Shown here piece after piece: positions 6,477 to 40,628 of a DNA stretch of 64,000 nucleotides. Positions within the stretch are counted from its first letter, which is position 1; the number at the start of each line of letters is the position of its first letter. The notes beneath the pieces were generated by a model. That model was not told the DNA's origin and searched no databases. It saw only the letters and a program-made list of their open reading frames with translations. This stretch comes from Clostridia bacterium (GTDB lineage Bacteria > Bacillota > Clostridia > UMGS1883), in assembly GCA_045546275.1 (NCBI GenBank), contig JAZQCM010000042.1:3864-67863 (forward strand). The letters run 5' to 3'. Both the position numbers and the translations under genes were made by a program.

Positions 6477-7374
6477 CTATTTTAACATCTTTAAAACCCT
6501 TTTCAAAAAAGATTGTTTTTATCTGTTCCATTTTTTCCTTTGACGGAGTGCTCATGCTGTTGGCATCGTATTCTTTGCCCAGTTTTGTGTACTTGTATTT
6601 GCCCATATCGTGATAGGGGAGTAAGTTCACCTTTGTAATGCCCATTGCATAAGTTTTTTCGGCAATTTTCTCCAGGTCATCCAAGTTGCAGTTGCAATTT
6701 TCAATAAGGGGTAACCTCAGGTTTATATTTGCACCCATGTTGCAAAGCTTTTCAAGGTTTTCCCAAATAATGTGGTTGTCAACTCCTGTAAGAGCTTTGT
6801 GCAAAGCCCGATCATAGGCTTTTATATCGTACAAAAACACATCAGTGTAGGGGTGTATTTTTTCAAACACTTCAAAGGGGGCGTAGCCTGAGGTGTCAAC
6901 TGCAGTATGTATACGCTGTGCCTTACATTTTTTTAAAAGGAGCAGCAAAAACTCGGGAAAAATGGTGCATTCGCCACCTGAGAATGTAACGCCACCGCCT
7001 GATTCGTTGTAAAAGGAGGTGTCCTTTAAAATAATGTCAAACACTTCATCGTTTGTCATTTCCTTGCCGGAAATTTCCCTTGCGTTATAATAACAAACGT
7101 CGGTGCAGCTTCCGCACAAATTACACTTTTTTGTATCTGTGGTAAGAGTGCCGTTTTCAATTGTGATGGCACCGTTAGGGCAGTTCTTTTCGCACCTGCC
7201 GCAAAGGGTGCAGTTTTCAGCGTTGTACATAACCTCATAATGACTATTGAAGGTTTCAGGGTTGTGACACCATTTACAACGCAAGGGACACCCCTTGAAA
7301 AACACCGTTGTTCTGATGCCGTCACCATCCTTTGTGGAAAAACGCTGTATGTTTGAAATAAGTACTTTTTCCAT
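6469..7374 (-). CDS. Glycyl-radical enzyme activating enzyme (radical SAM) with two extra ferredoxin-like clusters.
   Basis: GCPLRCKWCHNPE (Cx3Cx2C). Additional cluster motifs CTLCGRCEKNCP and CNLCGSCTDVC. The gene overlaps the GRE gene by 8 nt. Confidence 0.9.
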   Translation of the reverse strand: MEKVLISNIQRFSTKDGDGIRTTVFFKGCPLRCKWCHNPETFNSHYEVMYNAENCTLCGRCEKNCPNGAITIENGTLTTDTKKCNLCGSCTDVCYYNAREISGKEMTNDEVFDIILKDTSFYNESGGGVTFSGGECTIFPEFLLLLLKKCKAQRIHTAVDTSGYAPFEVFEKIHPYTDVFLYDIKAYDRALHKALTGVDNHIIWENLEKLCNMGANINLRLPLIENCNCNLDDLEKIAEKTYAMGITKVNLLPYHDMGKYKYTKLGKEYDANSMSTPSKEKMEQIKTIFFEKGFKDVKIGG

Positions 7375-7494
7375 TCCATTTTCCTCACAATCAAATATAC
7401 CTTATCAGAATAATTTTATATCTTTTTTATGCTACTGTCAATAAAAAAAGTAGGTTTCTTAACACAGTACGACAATATTTTAATCTTCATTTTT

Positions 7495-7500
7495 GTATAA
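7495..7500 (+). promoter_or_regulatory. Extended -10 (tTGtATAAT) for the spoIIGA-sigE operon, with possible Spo0A-box-like elements upstream.
   Basis: tttTGtATAATgg sits immediately before the ORF. 0A-box-like sequences (TGTCGAA consensus) occur at about 7431 (TGTCAAT) and about 7466 (TaCGACA on the complementary strand). Confidence 0.35.
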
Positions 7501-8375
7501 TGGTATGGGAGGTGGAAACGATTAGCATTTATATAGATATTTTGTTCATGATTAACTTTGTTATAAACATTCTTATTGTGGAAGGGTGCGGACTTTTAAT
7601 AAACCGTGAAACAAAATGGTACAAAACTCTTCTGGCAGCGTTTGTGGGTGCATTGTATGCAGTGGCGGTATTTTTTCCCAATTTGACCATGCTCAAATCT
7701 GCAGTTATGAAAATAATAGTGTCGGGGATTATGGTTGGGCTGGCTTTTAAAATAAATAAAAAAAGTGCATTTTTAAAGGTTTGGTGCAGCTTTTACCTTG
7801 TGAGCTTTATTTTTGGCGGTGCTATTATTGCAATAATGAGCCTTACAGGAATTGGTGCAAAAACAGGTGCAATTATTTCAAACGGAAGCATTTATTTTTC
7901 TTTGCCCTGGAAAATGGTGCTTTTGTCAAGCGGTGTGGTTTATCTGGTGTTAACCATTTTTTCACGCATACGGAAAAGAAGAATTTCCAACAAAGCGGTA
8001 GAACGAGTTTTAAAAATATACATAAACGGAAAAAAGATAGAAATGAATGCAATTATCGACACGGGAAATTCTTTATCCGACCCTATCACAGGGTGCCCGG
8101 TAATAGTTTGCGAATACGACGAATTAAAATGCATTTTGCCAAAGGATGACGACAAATCAATAATTGAAAAAATGCTTTCGGCAAATCTTAAGGTAAGGCT
8201 CATACCCTTTTCCAGCATAGGCGAGGAACAGGGAGTGATGCCCGGGTTTATGCCTGATTTGGTAGAGATTGATCATTATAAAGCCAAGAGGTGTGTTATA
8301 TGCATAAGCGAAACAAAGCTTTCAAAAGAAGAGGAGTATCATGCATTGTTAAATCCAATGCTGATTGTGGGTTGA
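7500..8375 (+). CDS. spoIIGA: Sigma-E processing peptidase SpoIIGA (a membrane aspartic protease).
   Basis: The N-terminus is multi-TM and the C-terminus carries IDTGNS (a DTG aspartic protease motif). It sits immediately upstream of sigE. The exact start is uncertain because the -10 overlaps the annotated ATG. Confidence 0.85.
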
Positions 8376-35361: not shown

Positions 35362-36324
35362 ATGTTTTTATTAATCTTACTCATACTTGTTCTTTTTCCG
35401 AAAGACGCTTCAATGGGGGCACAGGAAGGCATTAAAATGGCTTTTGAGGTTGTGATTGTTTCCATTTTGCCCTTTGCAATATGTGCCTCCGGTGTGGTAT
35501 ATTCAGGCTTGGCAAGGGTAATAGGTGCAGTTTTTTCGCCTGTATTCACAAAGGTTTTCGGACTAAGCCCCTATGGTGCAGTAGCCCTTATGTCGGGTAT
35601 GTTAGGTGGTTACCCTACAGGGAGTAAGGTTATCTGCGATATGATTGAAGAGGGTGTTATAACTAAAAGTGAGGGTGAAAAAATGCTTTCCTACTCCAAT
35701 GTGGGAGGCTTGGTTTTTTCTTTGAATGTGGTGGGGAAAACTGCCTTCGGTTCTTACAAAACCGGAATTACAATATACATAATACATATTCTTGCAACCC
35801 TTATTACAGCCTCTCTTTTAAACAAAAGAGAAAAGCATTATCTTAACATAAAGGATGAAATCTATTTTTATAAAAAACAAAAAAAGCCCCTTATGGCAAT
35901 TGTTGGGAAAAGCATTGCCTCGGGGGGAAGTGTTATGATAAGCATTGTTTCGTCATTTGTTGTTTTTTATGCGGTGATTTTTGCCCTGCAGGTTGAAAAA
36001 GCACCTCTTTTGTGCGGCTTTTTGGAAATGACAAAAGGGGTTATTTATTCGGGGAAAATTAAAAGCATACCACTTGCGGCACTTCTTTTTTCTTTTGGTG
36101 GATTGTCGGTTTTTGCGCAAACAGAAAGCATTTGCGAAAAATGGAATTTAAGCCTTAAGCAGTTTTACAAGGGTAAAATAATAAGCAGTGTAATTTCATA
36201 TTTTTTAGCATGGGGATATGTAAATATAGCATCCTGGGGAAAGGAAGGTTTGGTGCTGACTTTTTGTGCTGTTATGGTTATAGGAACTTCAATTATACTT
36301 ATAAACAAAAAAATTCTCTGTTGA
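35362..36324 (+). CDS. Nucleoside-recognition (Gate) domain membrane protein, YlbJ/SpmAB-like.
   Basis: Polytopic membrane protein of 320 aa with two Gate-like halves (GAVALMSGMLGGYPTG; GGLSVFAQTES). Confidence 0.5.
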   Translation: MFLLILLILVLFPKDASMGAQEGIKMAFEVVIVSILPFAICASGVVYSGLARVIGAVFSPVFTKVFGLSPYGAVALMSGMLGGYPTGSKVICDMIEEGVITKSEGEKMLSYSNVGGLVFSLNVVGKTAFGSYKTGITIYIIHILATLITASLLNKREKHYLNIKDEIYFYKKQKKPLMAIVGKSIASGGSVMISIVSSFVVFYAVIFALQVEKAPLLCGFLEMTKGVIYSGKIKSIPLAALLFSFGGLSVFAQTESICEKWNLSLKQFYKGKIISSVISYFLAWGYVNIASWGKEGLVLTFCAVMVIGTSIILINKKILC

Positions 36325-36343
36325 ATATCAACAGAGAATTTCT

Positions 36344-36547
36344 TTATTTGCTTTCAAGAAAATCGTTAATCTTCTGAACAAGTTCATCAACGTCAACGCC
36401 GTGTACCAATGCTGCCTGTTCCAGACTTTCGCCTGATGCAGAAGGGCAACCTAAGCAGTGCATACCGATTTCGAAAAAGATAGGAGCTGTTTCGGGGTCG
36501 ATACGTAAAACGTCCATAATAATTGTGTCCTTTGTTACCTGAGCCAT
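36344..36547 (-). CDS. DUF1858 redox-disulfide domain protein (associated with hybrid-cluster proteins).
   Basis: MAQVTKDTIIMDVLRIDPETAPIFFEIGMHCLGCPSASGESLEQAALVHGVDVDELVQKINDF (CxxC). Confidence 0.8.
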   Translation of the reverse strand: MAQVTKDTIIMDVLRIDPETAPIFFEIGMHCLGCPSASGESLEQAALVHGVDVDELVQKINDFLESK

Positions 36548-36732
36548 TTCATTTACCTCCGTTCATTTTTAATAATTATATAAAGTATTGGCTAAAGAGT
36601 CAAGACCAATTCGTAAAAAAACCATAAAAAAGGAGCTTGTAAAATTATGCAAGCAAACGTCGAAAACGAAAAAATAAATTAATTATGTAAACTAATGTTT
36701 AAAGGGTTTTGTACATTTTGGAAAACTTAAAA

Positions 36733-36837
36733 CTTTCCACCAAAAACAATTGCAAACCCTGTGGAAAATGTGGAAAAGTTTATGGAAAACCGCAAAATGA
36801 GGCTCTAAAACATGTGGAAAACTCAAATATTCCACAG
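36733..36837 (+). promoter_or_regulatory. Cluster of TGTGGAAAA motifs in a gene-free region.
   Basis: Perfect copies at 36760-36768 and 36769-36777 (direct tandem) and at 36813-36821. A partial copy aTGGAAAAc at 36783. Inverted half-sites ttccacc (36734) and ttccacag (36830). Confidence 0.4.
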
Positions 36838-36884
36838 AGCTGAATTTTTAAACAAGCTAAATAGGTTTACATAATCAATGCGAA

Positions 36885-36925
36885 TTTGCGAACCCTCGCA
36901 AACCCTTGTTTTATCGGCTTTTTTG
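36885..36925 (+). terminator. Terminator-like hairpin closing a putative + strand sRNA in the 36.6-36.9 kb gap.
   Basis: tttgcga-accc-tcgcaaa followed by cccttgttttatcggctttttt. Confidence 0.35.
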
Positions 36926-36942
36926 TCGAAACGAAAATATAT

Positions 36943-36971
36943 TGACCTTTATATGAATTTAGTATAAAATA
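36943..36971 (+). promoter_or_regulatory. Sigma-A promoter of rnc.
   Basis: TTGACC-17 nt-TAAAAT. Confidence 0.5.
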
Positions 36972-36992
36972 ATGCAGGAGAGGATGAAAAAT

Positions 36993-37661
36993 ATGAATCT
37001 TGAAATTTTGGAAAAAAATTTAGGTTATAAATTTAATAATATTGAGCTTTTAAAACGAGCAATTACCCATACATCCTATGCAAACGAAAGAAAAATAGAA
37101 AGCTACGAAAGGCTGGAGTTTTTGGGCGATGCAGTGCTCCAGATGCTCACAAGCAGGTACATATATTTAAACTTTCCCACCTTCCCCGAGGGGAAAATGA
37201 GCAGAATGCGTGCAAATATTGTTTGCGAAGGAACATTGTTCCAGATTGCAAAAAAGCTCGAAATTGATAAATTCGCATACCTTGGAAAGGGTGAGGAATT
37301 AACAGGCGGAAGAGAGCGTCCTTCAATCCTTGCCGACATGGTAGAAGCAATCCTTGCCGCAATTTACCTTGATGGAGGCATTGAAAAGGCACGTGAAATT
37401 ATTTTTGATGCATATGGTGATATTATAAATTCCGCAGCCGAAGGCAAGCTTAACCGTGATTACAAAACGGCACTTCAGGAAAAGCTTCAGGAAAATGGCA
37501 GTGTGAAAATAGAGTACCACCTTGTAAAAGAGGAGGGACCTTCTCACAATAAGCTTTTCACAATGGCTGTATGTGTGGACAATAAAATTTTAGGCGCAGG
37601 AAGCGGAAAAACCAAGCAGGAAGCACAGCAAATGGCTGCAAAGGAAGCTTTAGGTGAGTAA
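36993..37661 (+). CDS. rnc: Ribonuclease III.
   Basis: ERLEFLGDAVL signature with a C-terminal dsRBD. Start chosen at MNLEIL, with RBS ggagagga upstream. The ATG at 36972 would lie at the predicted TSS. Confidence 0.92.
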   Translation: MNLEILEKNLGYKFNNIELLKRAITHTSYANERKIESYERLEFLGDAVLQMLTSRYIYLNFPTFPEGKMSRMRANIVCEGTLFQIAKKLEIDKFAYLGKGEELTGGRERPSILADMVEAILAAIYLDGGIEKAREIIFDAYGDIINSAAEGKLNRDYKTALQEKLQENGSVKIEYHLVKEEGPSHNKLFTMAVCVDNKILGAGSGKTKQEAQQMAAKEALGE

Positions 37662-38640
37662 AATGGCAAACATTCCGATTTTTATCCCTCATGTGGGTTG
37701 TAAAAACGAGTGCATTTTTTGCAATCAAAGGTCAATAACCGGTGAAAACAGTATACCTTCCTTTACCGAAACCGATAATATTATAAAAGAGCATCTCAAA
37801 ACTCTTGCCGAAAAACCCCAGATTGCATTTTTCGGAGGCAGTTTTACAGGTATAGGGGAAGAATTGATGGAGGGGTATTTAAAAATTGCCCATAAGTATG
37901 TAAAGGCAGGGAAAGTGTGGGGCATACGCCTTTCGACCCGCCCTGATTATATTAACGAAAAAATCCTTGAAATATTAAAACAATACTCCGTTACAAACAT
38001 TGAACTTGGTGCTCAGAGTCTTGACGATACCATTTTAAGGCTTGCAAACCGTGGACACGACAGCGAGTGTGTTAAAAAAGCAAGTGAAATGATAGTAGAA
38101 GCAGGCTTTAACTTAGGACTGCAAATGATGGTTGGTCTTCCCGGTGACAGCTACGAAAAAAGCATAGGAACCGCAAAAAAAATTGTTTCCTTTGGTGCGA
38201 AGGAAACAAGGATTTACCCCACGGTTATAATAAAAAACACAGCACTTAACGAAATGTATGAAAAAAGGGAGTTTACACCATTAAGCTTTGATGAGGCAAT
38301 TAACATTTCTGCTGATTGCTACAGTATTTTTCATGAAAACAACGTAAAAGTGTTACGAATAGGACTTCCTGCTTCAGAGCACCTTAAAGAAAGCGTGACG
38401 GGCGGTTTTTACCACGAAGCAATAGGCGAAATGGTGTATTCAAGAGTTATCCGCAACAACATAGAAAAGTGCGAGGGAAATGCTCTTATAGAATACAACC
38501 ATAGGTTTTTGAGTAAAGTTTTGGGTCAAAAACGTGAAAACATAAAATACTTTGAAAAAAAGGGCATACACGTCACTTTAAAAGAGGAAAATTCCCTTCC
38601 CGGAGTGCGTATAAACGGAAAAATTGTGTTGACATTTTGA
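37654..38640 (+). CDS. Radical SAM protein of unknown function (ELP3/TIGR01212-like core without an acetyltransferase domain).
   Basis: IPHVGCKNECIFCNQ (Cx3Cx2C). It overlaps the rnc stop. Confidence 0.75.
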   Translation: MSKMANIPIFIPHVGCKNECIFCNQRSITGENSIPSFTETDNIIKEHLKTLAEKPQIAFFGGSFTGIGEELMEGYLKIAHKYVKAGKVWGIRLSTRPDYINEKILEILKQYSVTNIELGAQSLDDTILRLANRGHDSECVKKASEMIVEAGFNLGLQMMVGLPGDSYEKSIGTAKKIVSFGAKETRIYPTVIIKNTALNEMYEKREFTPLSFDEAINISADCYSIFHENNVKVLRIGLPASEHLKESVTGGFYHEAIGEMVYSRVIRNNIEKCEGNALIEYNHRFLSKVLGQKRENIKYFEKKGIHVTLKEENSLPGVRINGKIVLTF

Positions 38641-38690
38641 CATAAAAAATATAAAATAATATGAGTATATATACAAAAGGAGTGACCAAT

Positions 38691-40628
38691 ATGGTAATTA
38701 AAGTAACTTTAAGAGACGATGTAAGAGAATTTGAAGCTCCTATAACCTACATGGATATTGCTAAGAGCATCAGTGACGGCTTAGCACGAACTTGTCTTTG
38801 TGCTACAAAAAACGGCGAAACCGTAGGCCTTTTTGATACCCTCACCGAGGATGCCGTAGTTGAATTTAAAAATTTTGATACAGAAGAAGGAAGAAACACT
38901 CTCCGCCACAGCGCAAGCCATGTTCTTGCACAGGCTGTTAAAAGGCTTTTCCCCGAGGTAAAGCTTGCAATCGGTCCTGCAATTGAAAACGGTTTTTATT
39001 ACGATTTTGACCTTGACAAGGGCTTTTCACCGGAAGATCTTGCTAAGATTGAAGCTGAAATGAAAAAGATTGTAAAGGAAAACCTCAGAATTGAACGCTT
39101 TGAATTGGAAAGAAAAGAAGCTGTAAAGCTTATGGAAGAAATGGGCGAGCCCTACAAGGTTGAATTAATTAACGATTTGCCTGAGGATGCTGTTATTTCC
39201 TTCTACAAGCAGGGCGATTTTACTGACCTTTGCGCAGGTCCTCATGTGCCCAACACAGGCTATGTTAAGGCGTTTAAAATAACCAGCACTGCAGGTGCAT
39301 ATTGGAGAGGCAACGAAAAGAACAAAATGCTTACCCGTATTTACGCAACTGCATTTACAAAAAAGGCAGACATGGAAGAATATCTTCTCCAGGTTGAAGA
39401 AGCTAAAAAGCGTGACCACAACAAGTTAGGTCGTGAGCTTGAACTTTTCACAACAAGTGAATATATCGGTCAGGGTCTTCCCATTCTTCTTCCCAAGGGT
39501 GTTGCCATTGTTCAGACATTGCAGCGCTTTGTTGAAGACGAAGAAGCAAGACGTGGTTGGCTTCGAACAAAAACTCCTCTTATGGCAAAGAGTGATTTGT
39601 ATAAAATTTCAGGTCACTGGGACCACTACAAGGACGGCATGTTCGTTTTAGGCGACGAAGAAAAGGACGACGAGGTTTTTGCACTTCGTCCCATGACTTG
39701 TCCCTTCCAGTATCAGGCTTATCTTAACCGTGCACGCTCTTACCGTGATTTGCCCCTTCGTTACGGCGAAACAAGTACTCTTTTCCGTAATGAAGCAAGT
39801 GGCGAAATGCACGGCTTAATCAGAGTAAGACAGTTCACAATTTCCGAGGGTCACTTAATGTGTACTCCCGAACAGCTTGCTGATGAATTCAAGAGCTGTT
39901 TGGAATTGGCAATTTACATGTTGAAAACATTAGGTCTTTATGAAGACGTTTCCTACCGTTTCAGCCAGTGGGATCCCGATGACCGTGAAAAGTACATCGG
40001 CACAGACGAACAGTGGAACGAAGCTCAGGGCATGATGAAAGAAATTCTTGACAACCTTGAAATCCCCTATGTTATAGGTGTTGGCGAAGCAGCGTTCTAT
40101 GGTCCCAAGCTTGACATTCAGATTAAGAATGTTCACGGCAAGGAAGATACTCTTATTACTCTTCAGATTGACCAGATGCTTGCAGAAAAGTTCGGCATGG
40201 TTTACACCGATACTGACGGCACAAAGAAGCATCCCTACATTATCCACCGTACAAGTATCGGCTGCTACGAAAGAACACTTGCTCTTCTTATTGAAAAGTA
40301 TGCAGGTGCATTCCCCACATGGATGGCTCCCGTTCAGGTTAAGCTTCTTCCCATTGGTGAAGGTCATCGTGAATACTGCCGTGAACTTAACACACGCCTT
40401 ATCAATATGGGCATCCGCAGCGAGGTTGACGACAGAAGCGAAAAGATTGGTTACAAAATCCGTGAAGCACAGCTCGAAAAGGTTCCTTACATGCTTGTTG
40501 TAGGCGACAAGGAAATGGAAGACGGTGCAGTTGCGGTTCGTAGCCGTAAGGATGGCGATAAGGGCTCAGTTAAGGTTGATGACTTTATCATGGCTCTCTT
40601 AAATGAAATCGCTGAAAAAACAAGATAA
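38691..40628 (+). CDS. thrS: Threonyl-tRNA synthetase.
   Basis: TGS domain followed by a class II core (FRNEASGEMHGLIRVRQFT, motif 2/3) and an anticodon-binding domain. Start at MVIKVTL, with RBS aaaaggagtg upstream. There is no room for a T-box leader. Confidence 0.93.
   Translation: MVIKVTLRDDVREFEAPITYMDIAKSISDGLARTCLCATKNGETVGLFDTLTEDAVVEFKNFDTEEGRNTLRHSASHVLAQAVKRLFPEVKLAIGPAIENGFYYDFDLDKGFSPEDLAKIEAEMKKIVKENLRIERFELERKEAVKLMEEMGEPYKVELINDLPEDAVISFYKQGDFTDLCAGPHVPNTGYVKAFKITSTAGAYWRGNEKNKMLTRIYATAFTKKADMEEYLLQVEEAKKRDHNKLGRELELFTTSEYIGQGLPILLPKGVAIVQTLQRFVEDEEARRGWLRTKTPLMAKSDLYKISGHWDHYKDGMFVLGDEEKDDEVFALRPMTCPFQYQAYLNRARSYRDLPLRYGETSTLFRNEASGEMHGLIRVRQFTISEGHLMCTPEQLADEFKSCLELAIYMLKTLGLYEDVSYRFSQWDPDDREKYIGTDEQWNEAQGMMKEILDNLEIPYVIGVGEAAFYGPKLDIQIKNVHGKEDTLITLQIDQMLAEKFGMVYTDTDGTKKHPYIIHRTSIGCYERTLALLIEKYAGAFPTWMAPVQVKLLPIGEGHREYCRELNTRLINMGIRSEVDDRSEKIGYKIREAQLEKVPYMLVVGDKEMEDGAVAVRSRKDGDKGSVKVDDFIMALLNEIAEKTR

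Follow-up and report, generated by a model that had tools for sequence, protein, structure and literature searches.

The interval from 36548 to 36971 of the window, by which we mean the whole 64-kb stretch of DNA that was analyzed, is flanked by a minus-strand gene for a 67-amino-acid (aa) DUF1858 protein (36344-36547) and by rnc on the plus strand, which heads a unit that continues with a radical-SAM gene and then thrS. The rnc open reading frame (ORF) extends from 36972, and its true start is likely at 36984 or 36993. A first-pass annotation of this DNA had described the interval as gene-free and without a convincing ORF. With respect to coding capacity this description stands, as the interval contains only ORFs of 44 to 47 aa that run through the repeats described below, none of them credible, and the 1- to 2-nt variation in the length of the repeat-bearing element among relatives (193 to 195 bp) makes a coding region a poor fit. 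The interval is not devoid of gene signals, however, and holds the promoters of both neighbors. Both are strong sigma-70-type promoters that face outwards (Table 1), and the repeat array is located between them, approximately 70 to 80 bp from each −35 sequence. The regulatory region is bounded on the left by the DUF1858 promoter, and the −35 and −10 sequences of the rnc promoter are near-invariant in an alignment of 10 sequences.

The box array and its bounding inverted repeat

The box array forms the core of a 194-bp element at positions 36682-36875. Three exact copies of TGTGGAAAA, two of them in tandem, had already been reported in the first-pass annotation, and this was confirmed: the copies start at 36760, 36769, and 36813, all on the plus strand and within 62 bp. 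The partial and inverted copies noted in their vicinity were likewise recovered, with one mismatch at 36717, at 36781, and, in inverted orientation, at 36828, and with two mismatches at 36733 (also inverted). All three exact and four degenerate or inverted copies fall within 120 bp, and only two further exact copies of TGTGGAAAA occur in the 64-kb window. When matches with up to one mismatch to TGTGGAAAA are counted, six lie within 130 bp; in 60 dinucleotide-preserving shuffles, by comparison, the largest cluster comprised 2 matches in 52 shuffles, 3 in 7 shuffles, and 4 in a single one. The clustering of the boxes is far beyond chance, and the excess over base composition, on which the earlier proposal of a motif array had been made to depend, is real.

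Table 1. Features of the rnc-DUF1858 interval in window coordinates, followed by the box layouts of three equivalent modules
Feature	Position	Strand	Sequence and remarks
Sigma-70-type promoter, DUF1858 gene	36575..36603	-	TTGACT-17-TATAAT; consensus scan, 11/12 matches; outside the element
Left arm	36682..36692	+	ATTATGTAAAC, with flanks TAATTATGTAAACT; exact in 13/15 clade-1 species
Weak box	36717..36725	+	TTTGGAAAA; one mismatch; mean identity 0.79
Inverted box	36733..36741	-	Plus strand reads CTTTCCACC; two mismatches; mean identity 0.87
Abutting tandem	36760..36777	+	TGTGGAAAA directly followed by TGTGGAAAA; 15/18 columns invariant in 15 species
Third box	36781..36789	+	TATGGAAAA; one mismatch; 3 bp past the tandem
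Conserved word	36786..36798	+	AAAACCGCAAAAT; mean identity 0.95
Box	36813..36821	+	TGTGGAAAA; 44 bp (4 x 11) 3′ of the 36769 box, same orientation; mean identity 0.96
Inverted box	36828..36836	-	Plus strand reads TATTCCACA; one mismatch; mean identity 0.75; no invariant column
Right arm	36865..36875	-	Plus strand reads GTTTACATAAT; exact reverse complement of the left arm
Terminator-like hairpin	36885..36902	+	TTTGCGA-ACCC-TCGCAAA, 7-bp stem, T-rich tail CCCTTGTTTT; weak
Spo0A-box-like heptamer	36924..36930	+	TGTCGAA; perfect; 11 nt upstream of the rnc −35
Sigma-70-type promoter, rnc-radical SAM-thrS unit	36942..36970	+	TTGACC-17-TAAAAT; consensus scan
Boxes of the L141 module			TTATACACA-AAG-TTATCCACA, abutting TTATCCACA
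Boxes of the L136 module			TTATTAACA-GAG-TTATCCACG, abutting TTATCCACA
Boxes of the L138 module			TGTGGATAA, abutting TGTTGATAA-AAT-TGTGGATAC

The abutting tandem at 36760-36777 is the invariant core of the element. In the window it forms a triple with the box that follows it: the boxes at 36760 and 36769 abut, and the box at 36781 comes after the bases GTT (box-0-box-3-box). In relatives, this third box reads TGTGAAAAA or TGTTTAAAA, and the inverted box at 36733-36741 reads TTTCCACA in most of them; the inverted box at 36828-36836 is degenerate in approximately half. Relative to the left arm, conserved same-strand boxes are located at +87, +131, and +164/165, in steps of 44 and 33 bp, and most relatives carry a further tandem 33 bp beyond the box of the 36813 type. 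Because these steps are multiples of 11 bp and the orientation is kept, the boxes are phased on one face of the helix.

The inverted repeat that bounds the array is invariant and had been missed in the first-pass annotation. Measured from start to start, its arms lie 183 bp apart in the window and enclose a segment of 172 bp. The distance is 182 to 184 bp in all 13 species of clade 1, the group of relatives described below, that bear arms, and both arms are intact in 12 of these 13 species. One uncompensated change in one arm was observed in L129; L145 and L146 have lost both arms and kept the boxes.

Two further features are found past the right arm, ahead of the rnc −35 sequence. The hairpin and T-tract that had been pointed out ahead of the rnc promoter are indeed present, but the hairpin is weak and absent from relatives. 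Folding of the stretch from the right arm to the rnc −35 sequence in 10 species revealed no conserved hairpin, and in L009 there was none at all; the hairpin of the window is therefore private to this genome, and it probably lies outside the element. The second feature is the heptamer at 36924-36930, a candidate Spo0A box. It is present in 5 of the 10 aligned sequences (the window, L001, L002, L004, and L006), and the corresponding position reads TGTCGG in L003 and L008 and CGTCGG in L005. The array boxes themselves were also considered as Spo0A sites, and this reading was rejected: their TGTGGAA never appears with the C of TGTCGAA, and the true TGTCGAA is separate from them, beside the rnc −35 sequence.

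Conservation in relatives and equivalent modules in other clades

When Rnc was used to scan species-representative genomes, nine MAGs of uncultured Clostridia/Oscillospiraceae from ruminant guts were recovered, in which Rnc is 69 to 79% identical to that of the window. The array is present upstream of rnc in all nine and was not found at more distant rnc loci. Look-ups of DUF1858 homologues added further species, giving a total of 15 distinct clade-1 elements. Conservation of the spacer in related genomes had been named as a check in the first-pass annotation, and 15 related species of uncultured Clostridia proved to have kept the element upstream of rnc. Most of the 15 carry a hisD-hisB-HAD insertion that separates the element from the DUF1858 gene; the order at these loci is rnc, element, his-DUF1858, Gate, and yabP-yqfD-phoH, with synteny as in the window. 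The element is kept whether its divergent neighbor is DUF1858 alone or hisD-hisB-HAD-DUF1858. Across the 15 species, the mean column identity is 0.96 in the tandem and 0.92 to 0.93 in the arms, compared with 0.57 to 0.70 in the spacers, so that the alignment consists of conserved blocks with diverged spacers between them. Selection acts on the sequence words of the element.

Equivalent modules, found by a metagenome scan with a two-arm pattern and by DUF1858-homologue look-ups, adjoin the DUF1858 units of four or more additional lineages. The two-arm scan returned a second clade (L088, L094, L096, and L122; here referred to as clade 2) and many phage contigs, which are of little relevance to the chromosomal element, and not the rnc element. 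Common to the modules is a triple layout of two abutting 9-mers with a third 2 to 3 bp away, and perfect TTATCCACA/TGTGGATAA boxes occur in the modules of L136, L138, and L141 (Table 1). Words similar to AAAACCGCAAAAT are found in L141, L088, L136, and L138. The boxes of these lineages lie near the universal DnaA consensus with the exception of clade 2, where most boxes read TGTTGATAA, which breaks the highly conserved CACA of that consensus. The orientation of the element relative to DUF1858 also differs, with clade 1 and L136 flipped with respect to clade 2 and L138. In clade 2, the right arm ends 8 to 12 nt short of the ribosome-binding site of a gene for a conserved membrane protein, with no visible sigma-70 promoter there; the arm may therefore carry a −10 sequence (CATAAT), or the element may be transcribed in that clade. 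The distance between boxes and promoter varies from approximately 40 to 235 bp between clades, which argues against a simple operator role.

Proteins predicted to bind the boxes and arms

The word TGTGGAAAA is the reverse complement of TTTTCCACA, which is a documented DnaA box of cyanobacteria (PMC4674748), and it fits the stringent DnaA-box consensus TTWTNCACA. This is the consensus used for Clostridial DnaA (PMC7561715), and it may not be the preference of the host clade itself. The density of TTWTNCACA matches is 11.1 per kb inside the elements versus 0.16 per kb in the flanking DNA of the same loci. Under a published definition, a cluster comprises at least three TTWTNCACA boxes (with up to one mismatch) at a mean spacing below 100 bp (PMC7561715); the window has its three exact boxes in 62 bp, and seven boxes with up to one or two mismatches in 120 bp. 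In vivo, E. coli DnaA prefers pairs of boxes 2 to 3 bp apart, the double DnaA box (PMC11317965), and such pairs are present at 36769/36781 (3 bp), in clade 2 (2 and 3 bp), and in L136, L138, and L141 (3 bp). Collectively, these comparisons suggest, with a probability of roughly 0.6, that the 194-bp element is a DnaA-box cluster outside oriC, and it is most likely a protein-docking DNA site rather than a small RNA gene. Of the regulator-binding array for an unknown direct-repeat-binding factor proposed in the first-pass annotation, the array is borne out, its boxes being the most conserved columns, whereas the factor is probably DnaA.

This assignment has several weak points. The invariant abutting pair has a 0-bp spacing and a 9-bp period, which places it outside the double-box rule, and such an arrangement is undescribed for DnaA, whose described pairs are 2 to 3 bp apart. 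In clade 1, the W position is A in every box and never T, and none of approximately 60 boxes reads TGTGGATAA. The broken CACA of clade 2 and the unconserved promoter distance count as weak points too, as does AAAACCGCAAAAT, which, like the arms, is unexplained by DnaA.

We infer occupancy by DnaA, and with it an effect on transcription or initiation, from these sequence features, and the following mechanism can be envisaged. ATP-DnaA would bind cooperatively and oligomerize on the box array. Midway between the divergent promoters, the oligomer would couple the rnc-radical SAM-thrS and (his-)DUF1858 units to replication status, and/or the array would serve DnaA as a chromosomal sink or a site of regulation and keep it away from oriC, in the manner of the B. 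subtilis DBCs and of E. coli datA/DARS. A second protein on the arms would delimit or loop the 183-bp segment.

It is unlikely, yet worth serious weighing, that a lineage-specific transcription factor other than DnaA binds the array and controls both divergent promoters, with the arms serving either as outward-facing promoter elements or as half-sites for this or another regulator. The box word is clade dependent (TGTGGAAAA in clade 1 versus TGTTGATAA in clade 2), as such a factor would have it, and cooperative repeat-binding repressors, unlike described DnaA pairs, typically show an abutting 9-bp period. In every case, the module occupies a promoter-bearing intergenic region beside a DUF1858-containing unit. 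The position of the clade-2 right arm just before the next ribosome-binding site, with no other promoter visible, is in line with this explanation, and so is the repeated use of the arm 11-mer in phages that have their own sigma factor, often 4 nt before TTGAC. However, three further clades carry perfect or near-perfect universal DnaA boxes, and boxes held on the DnaA consensus in separate clades are not expected of a lineage-specific factor. Moreover, no regulator gene travels with the module in the loci compared, and the box-to-promoter distance is unconserved.

We take the arms to be sites of a second sequence-specific protein, for which the XerD-binding arm of dif is the best sequence match. 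The B. subtilis dif site is ACTTCCTAGAATATATATTATGTAAACT (PMC4578258), and its XerD half is identical to the arm 11-mer and, over 12 of 12 bases, to the left arm of the window. The arms fit the 11-bp XerD-arm pattern TTATGTAAAC(T/C), and the arm 11-mer also matches dif sites of many other phyla (PMC2731167). Neither an XerC arm, which would end in ATAA, nor a 6-bp central region was found beside either arm; the outer flanks are A-rich and unconserved, and no ATAA is suitably placed apart from a chance match with a 5-bp spacing in the window. The arms are therefore half-sites at most and do not make up a complete recombination site. In phage contigs with genes for a terminase and a sigma factor of their own, the same 11-mer recurs 2 to 8 times per kb, and its copies there often lie 4 nt upstream of TTGAC. 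Since the word is also used in other ways, XerD is a lead for the arms and not a result. On the DnaA reading, the whole could be a composite chromosome-control site present in several clades of uncultured, spore-forming gut Clostridia, in which DnaA on phased boxes would sit between two outward-facing XerD-type half-sites approximately 183 bp apart, a proposal that we consider doubtful. That such a locus would be of the datA/DARS kind, with XerD or another protein recognizing dif arms as its accessory protein, is equally speculative.

A structured noncoding RNA of approximately 190 nt, which would be an sRNA or, for some clades, a 5′ leader, is improbable. Here the arms would pair the ends of the transcript, and a protein would be bound by the repeated UGUGGAAAA words. 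The arms could make a closing stem of 11 to 14 bp, and the outer flanking position is complementary (G..C, T..A, or A..T) in 11 of the 15 elements; because this complementarity is kept more often than expected, the RNA reading keeps a small probability. Three CCGCA changes still pair with UGUGG via G-U, the clade-2 element lies directly before a ribosome-binding site, and in the window the hairpin with its T-rich tail is found 3′ of the element. The single-sequence fold of the plus strand beats shuffles as well (z = −3.4), which is expected of any DNA rich in direct and inverted copies of a word. The RNAalifold consensus of 15 species, however, reaches only about −12 kcal/mol on either strand, with covariation terms near zero (−0.27 for one strand and +0.21 for the other). 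Half of the species have a decayed inverted partner box at 36828 without compensation while the plus-strand boxes are invariant, the arm change in one species is uncompensated, and the two species that lost both arms keep the boxes. In the relatives aligned or folded, there is neither a conserved promoter before the element nor a conserved terminator after it, and clades differ in the orientation of the element with respect to DUF1858. The Rfam scan that the first-pass annotation had put forward gave no relevant match, either in the whole window at gathering scores or in 36300-37100, which includes the element, at E values up to 10. Without covariation, a conserved promoter, a conserved hairpin, or an Rfam match, the independently terminated small RNA offered there as one of two explanations is not supported.

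An invertible or formerly mobile segment, such as an inverton or a domesticated MITE with the arms as Xer-type recombinase sites, is very unlikely. It is true that a perfect inverted repeat of 11 to 14 bp flanks a 172-bp segment directly 5′ of genes, that the arms equal a XerD half-site, that the interior has opposite orientations with respect to DUF1858 in different clades, and that the arm-flanking positions look coevolved. Nevertheless, none of the 15 distinct clade-1 assemblies has the segment inverted, and this single orientation in 15/15 makes an active switch unlikely. Neither arm carries a complete recombination site, Pfam scans revealed no recombinase gene among the larger ORFs of the window, and the element is present there in a single copy, at a position that is syntenic across species.

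A chromosomal or secondary replication origin, for which the DnaA-type box cluster with AT-rich flanks might speak, is hardly credible, as the cumulative GC skew rises monotonically through the site (36.7 kb), the skew of plus- and minus-strand gene blocks is equal on both sides, and Pfam scans found neither dnaA nor dnaN among the larger ORFs of the window. No GC-skew switch was seen within the 64 kb, so nothing marks a terminus within the window, and, given the lack of both a skew switch and dnaA/dnaN, the cluster was classed as outside oriC.

Several other candidates were also considered. The arms hold aTGTAAACC and GGTTTACAt, which match the two BirA half-sites at 8/9 positions each and are oriented to each other as in the operator. 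The BirA operator has the form TTGTAAACC-N14/15-GGTTTACAA. It was rejected, with the half-sites 172 bp apart instead of 14 to 15 bp and with rnc and DUF1858/hisD as neighbors; no biotin genes are adjacent to the element, and the BirA signal is without the invariant ATTA extension that the arms carry. Comparisons of the boxes with the Rex, CodY, WalR/PhoP, AbrB, MraZ, LytTR, and Fur motifs serve as leads only; none of these motifs agrees with the boxes in sequence as well as in spacing. A parS site was not found, and when the element was compared by blastn with PLSDB plasmids and INPHARED phages, the only matches were short and due to chance.

Significance and comparison with known systems

DnaA-box clusters outside oriC are known experimentally in few model bacteria, where they set the timing of initiation and tie expression to the cell cycle. 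If the assignment to DnaA is correct, the element extends this principle to uncultured Oscillospirales-like Clostridia. The class itself is already known; what is new is its occurrence in uncultured Clostridia, the rigid architecture, and the arms resembling dif half-sites. No described DnaA locus that combines a triple box, phasing, a fixed length, and XerD-half arms is known to us, including from the literature searched. Should the composite proposal hold, rnc, encoding a major double-strand RNase, and the gene for DUF1858, a small redox protein, would be under replication-coupled control. Arms that bind XerD would link the control of initiation to chromosome dimer resolution or to SMC handling. 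Even if the DnaA reading is wrong, the region remains a well-defined regulatory module common to many gut species.

The six non-oriC intergenic DBCs of B. subtilis regulate their neighbors and restrain initiation (PMC3245932; PMC4447404). Like the element described here, these DBCs are intergenic clusters of the DnaA consensus located off the origin, often between divergent genes, and show conservation among relatives; a role in regulating neighboring genes and in holding DnaA is attributed to them. The present element differs from them in its rnc/DUF1858 neighbors, in a compact and fixed architecture of about 190 bp, in its 0-bp tandem core, and in the bracketing inverted repeat, and it is predicted from sequence.

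With datA, DARS1, and DARS2, the element shares the layout of a noncoding locus in which a few oriented DnaA boxes are combined with sites for a second, architectural protein (IHF or Fis in those loci), as well as the location in a promoter-containing intergenic region (uvrB and mutH in E. coli). To our knowledge, Firmicutes lack IHF. There is no sequence relationship to these loci, the accessory sites here being two inverted 11-mers, and, unlike for datA and DARS, hydrolysis of DnaA-ATP or release of ADP is not inferable for the element. E. coli DnaA binds DARS1/2 and also upstream of the RNase gene rne, to which DnaA-type sites before rnc would be a parallel.

The invertible promoters of fimS and of the C. 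difficile flg/cwpV switches are similar in that short inverted repeats flank a segment of 150 to 300 bp just upstream of genes. The present segment differs from them, as it has one orientation in 15 assemblies, no adjacent recombinase, and a conserved promoter outside the segment. In dif, the two arms face each other across 6 bp, whereas here they face outwards across 172 bp. The arms are comparable in idea to the XerD-binding sites (XDS) of B. subtilis, which can lie far from dif. XDS are dif-like sites that XerD uses, without recombining them, to unload SMC (summarized in PMC11840125).

The rnc start and the thrS unit

The listed rnc open reading frame opens at an ATG (36972) within the −10 region of rnc's own promoter, and the Rnc proteins of relatives align only from residue 5 to 8 of this frame. 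The true start is probably the ATG at 36984 or 36993, past a GGAGAGG ribosome-binding site. Further along, thrS begins 20 nt after the radical-SAM gene (38641-38660) and is apparently transcribed together with rnc (36972-40628); the gene order rnc-rSAM-thrS was also found in L001 to L008, which are among the rnc loci aligned with the window. Across the 64-kb window, neither a T-box leader nor any other Rfam family was detected. A thrS gene without a T-box leader is unusual in a Firmicute.

Spo0A-like words and sporulation genes

The heptamer TGTCGAA upstream of rnc is Spo0A-box-like. Of the 10 sequences in the alignment, 5 (window included) keep it, and three more carry TGTCGG or CGTCGG. With spoIIGA, yqfD and yabP in the window, its organism is a spore-former. 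The spoIIGA gene is preceded by 0A-box-like words that adjoin an extended −10 (TGTATAAT) and, at a distance of approximately 160 nt, by an exact TGTGGAAAA, one of two copies outside the element (the DnaA-box-type cluster between the divergent DUF1858 and rnc promoters).

Features of the rnc region and of related loci (coordinates without a locus refer to the window)
Feature	Location	Remark
TGTGGAAAA, exact	7333-7341	within start of pyruvate formate-lyase activase gene
TGTCAAT; TACGACA	7440-7500	TACGACA, inverted TGTCGTA
spoIIGA	7500-8375	
Hairpin AAATTCTCTGTTGA-ATA-TCAACAGAGAATTT	36311-36341	14-bp perfect stem
Word AAAACCGCAAAAT	36786-36798	
Spo0A-box-like TGTCGAA, perfect	36924-36930	11 nt upstream of rnc −35
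Word AAAACCTCCAAAAT	L141:2200-2215	
Membrane protein gene, clade 2	L088:9089-10128	
11-mer arrays (examples), metagenome loci	L103:3460-3790; L117:1448-1780; L118:1200-1520	
Perfect palindrome cATTATGTAAGCATTTGT-ttt-ACAAATGCTTACATAATg	L142:4636-4673	

Surroundings of the element and its equivalents

Within the element, AAAACCGCAAAAT is conserved to the same degree as the boxes, its repeated 9-mers (n = 15 species). The similar word AAAACCTCCAAAAT occurs in the module of another lineage, and GCAAAAT in L088, L136 and L138. The hairpin separating the convergent Gate-domain and DUF1858 genes is likely a bidirectional terminator. In clade 2 (L088, L094, L096 and L122), a conserved gene for a membrane protein of ~337 aa (N terminus ...LSIALIYCG(A/T)VFGAGFASG(R/Q)EI...; no Pfam match) begins 20 to 30 nt past the right arm, with no recognizable sigma-70 promoter in between.

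The arm word in other loci

With up to one mismatch, the 11-mer of the element's inverted arms, GTTTACATAAT, occurs at 2 to 8 copies per kb on both strands of phage contigs L103, L112, L117, L118 and L120. These contigs encode the large subunit of terminase as well as a phage sigma factor, and their coding density is low under table 11. The 11-mer copies form intergenic arrays alongside GC-rich hairpins and CGAACA..TGTTCG-like palindromes, and TTGAC often follows 4 nt after the word, which has the appearance of a promoter or operator word specific to phages. L117, L118 and L089 also contain exact parS sites (TGTTTCACGTGAAACA or TGTTCCACGTGGAACA).

In locus L142, a perfect palindrome precedes a gene for a PBP5/D-Ala-D-Ala carboxypeptidase by ~45 nt. 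The half-sites of this palindrome, aTGTAAGCa-N14-tGCTTACAt, have the geometry of a BirA-type operator and carry an arm-like word.
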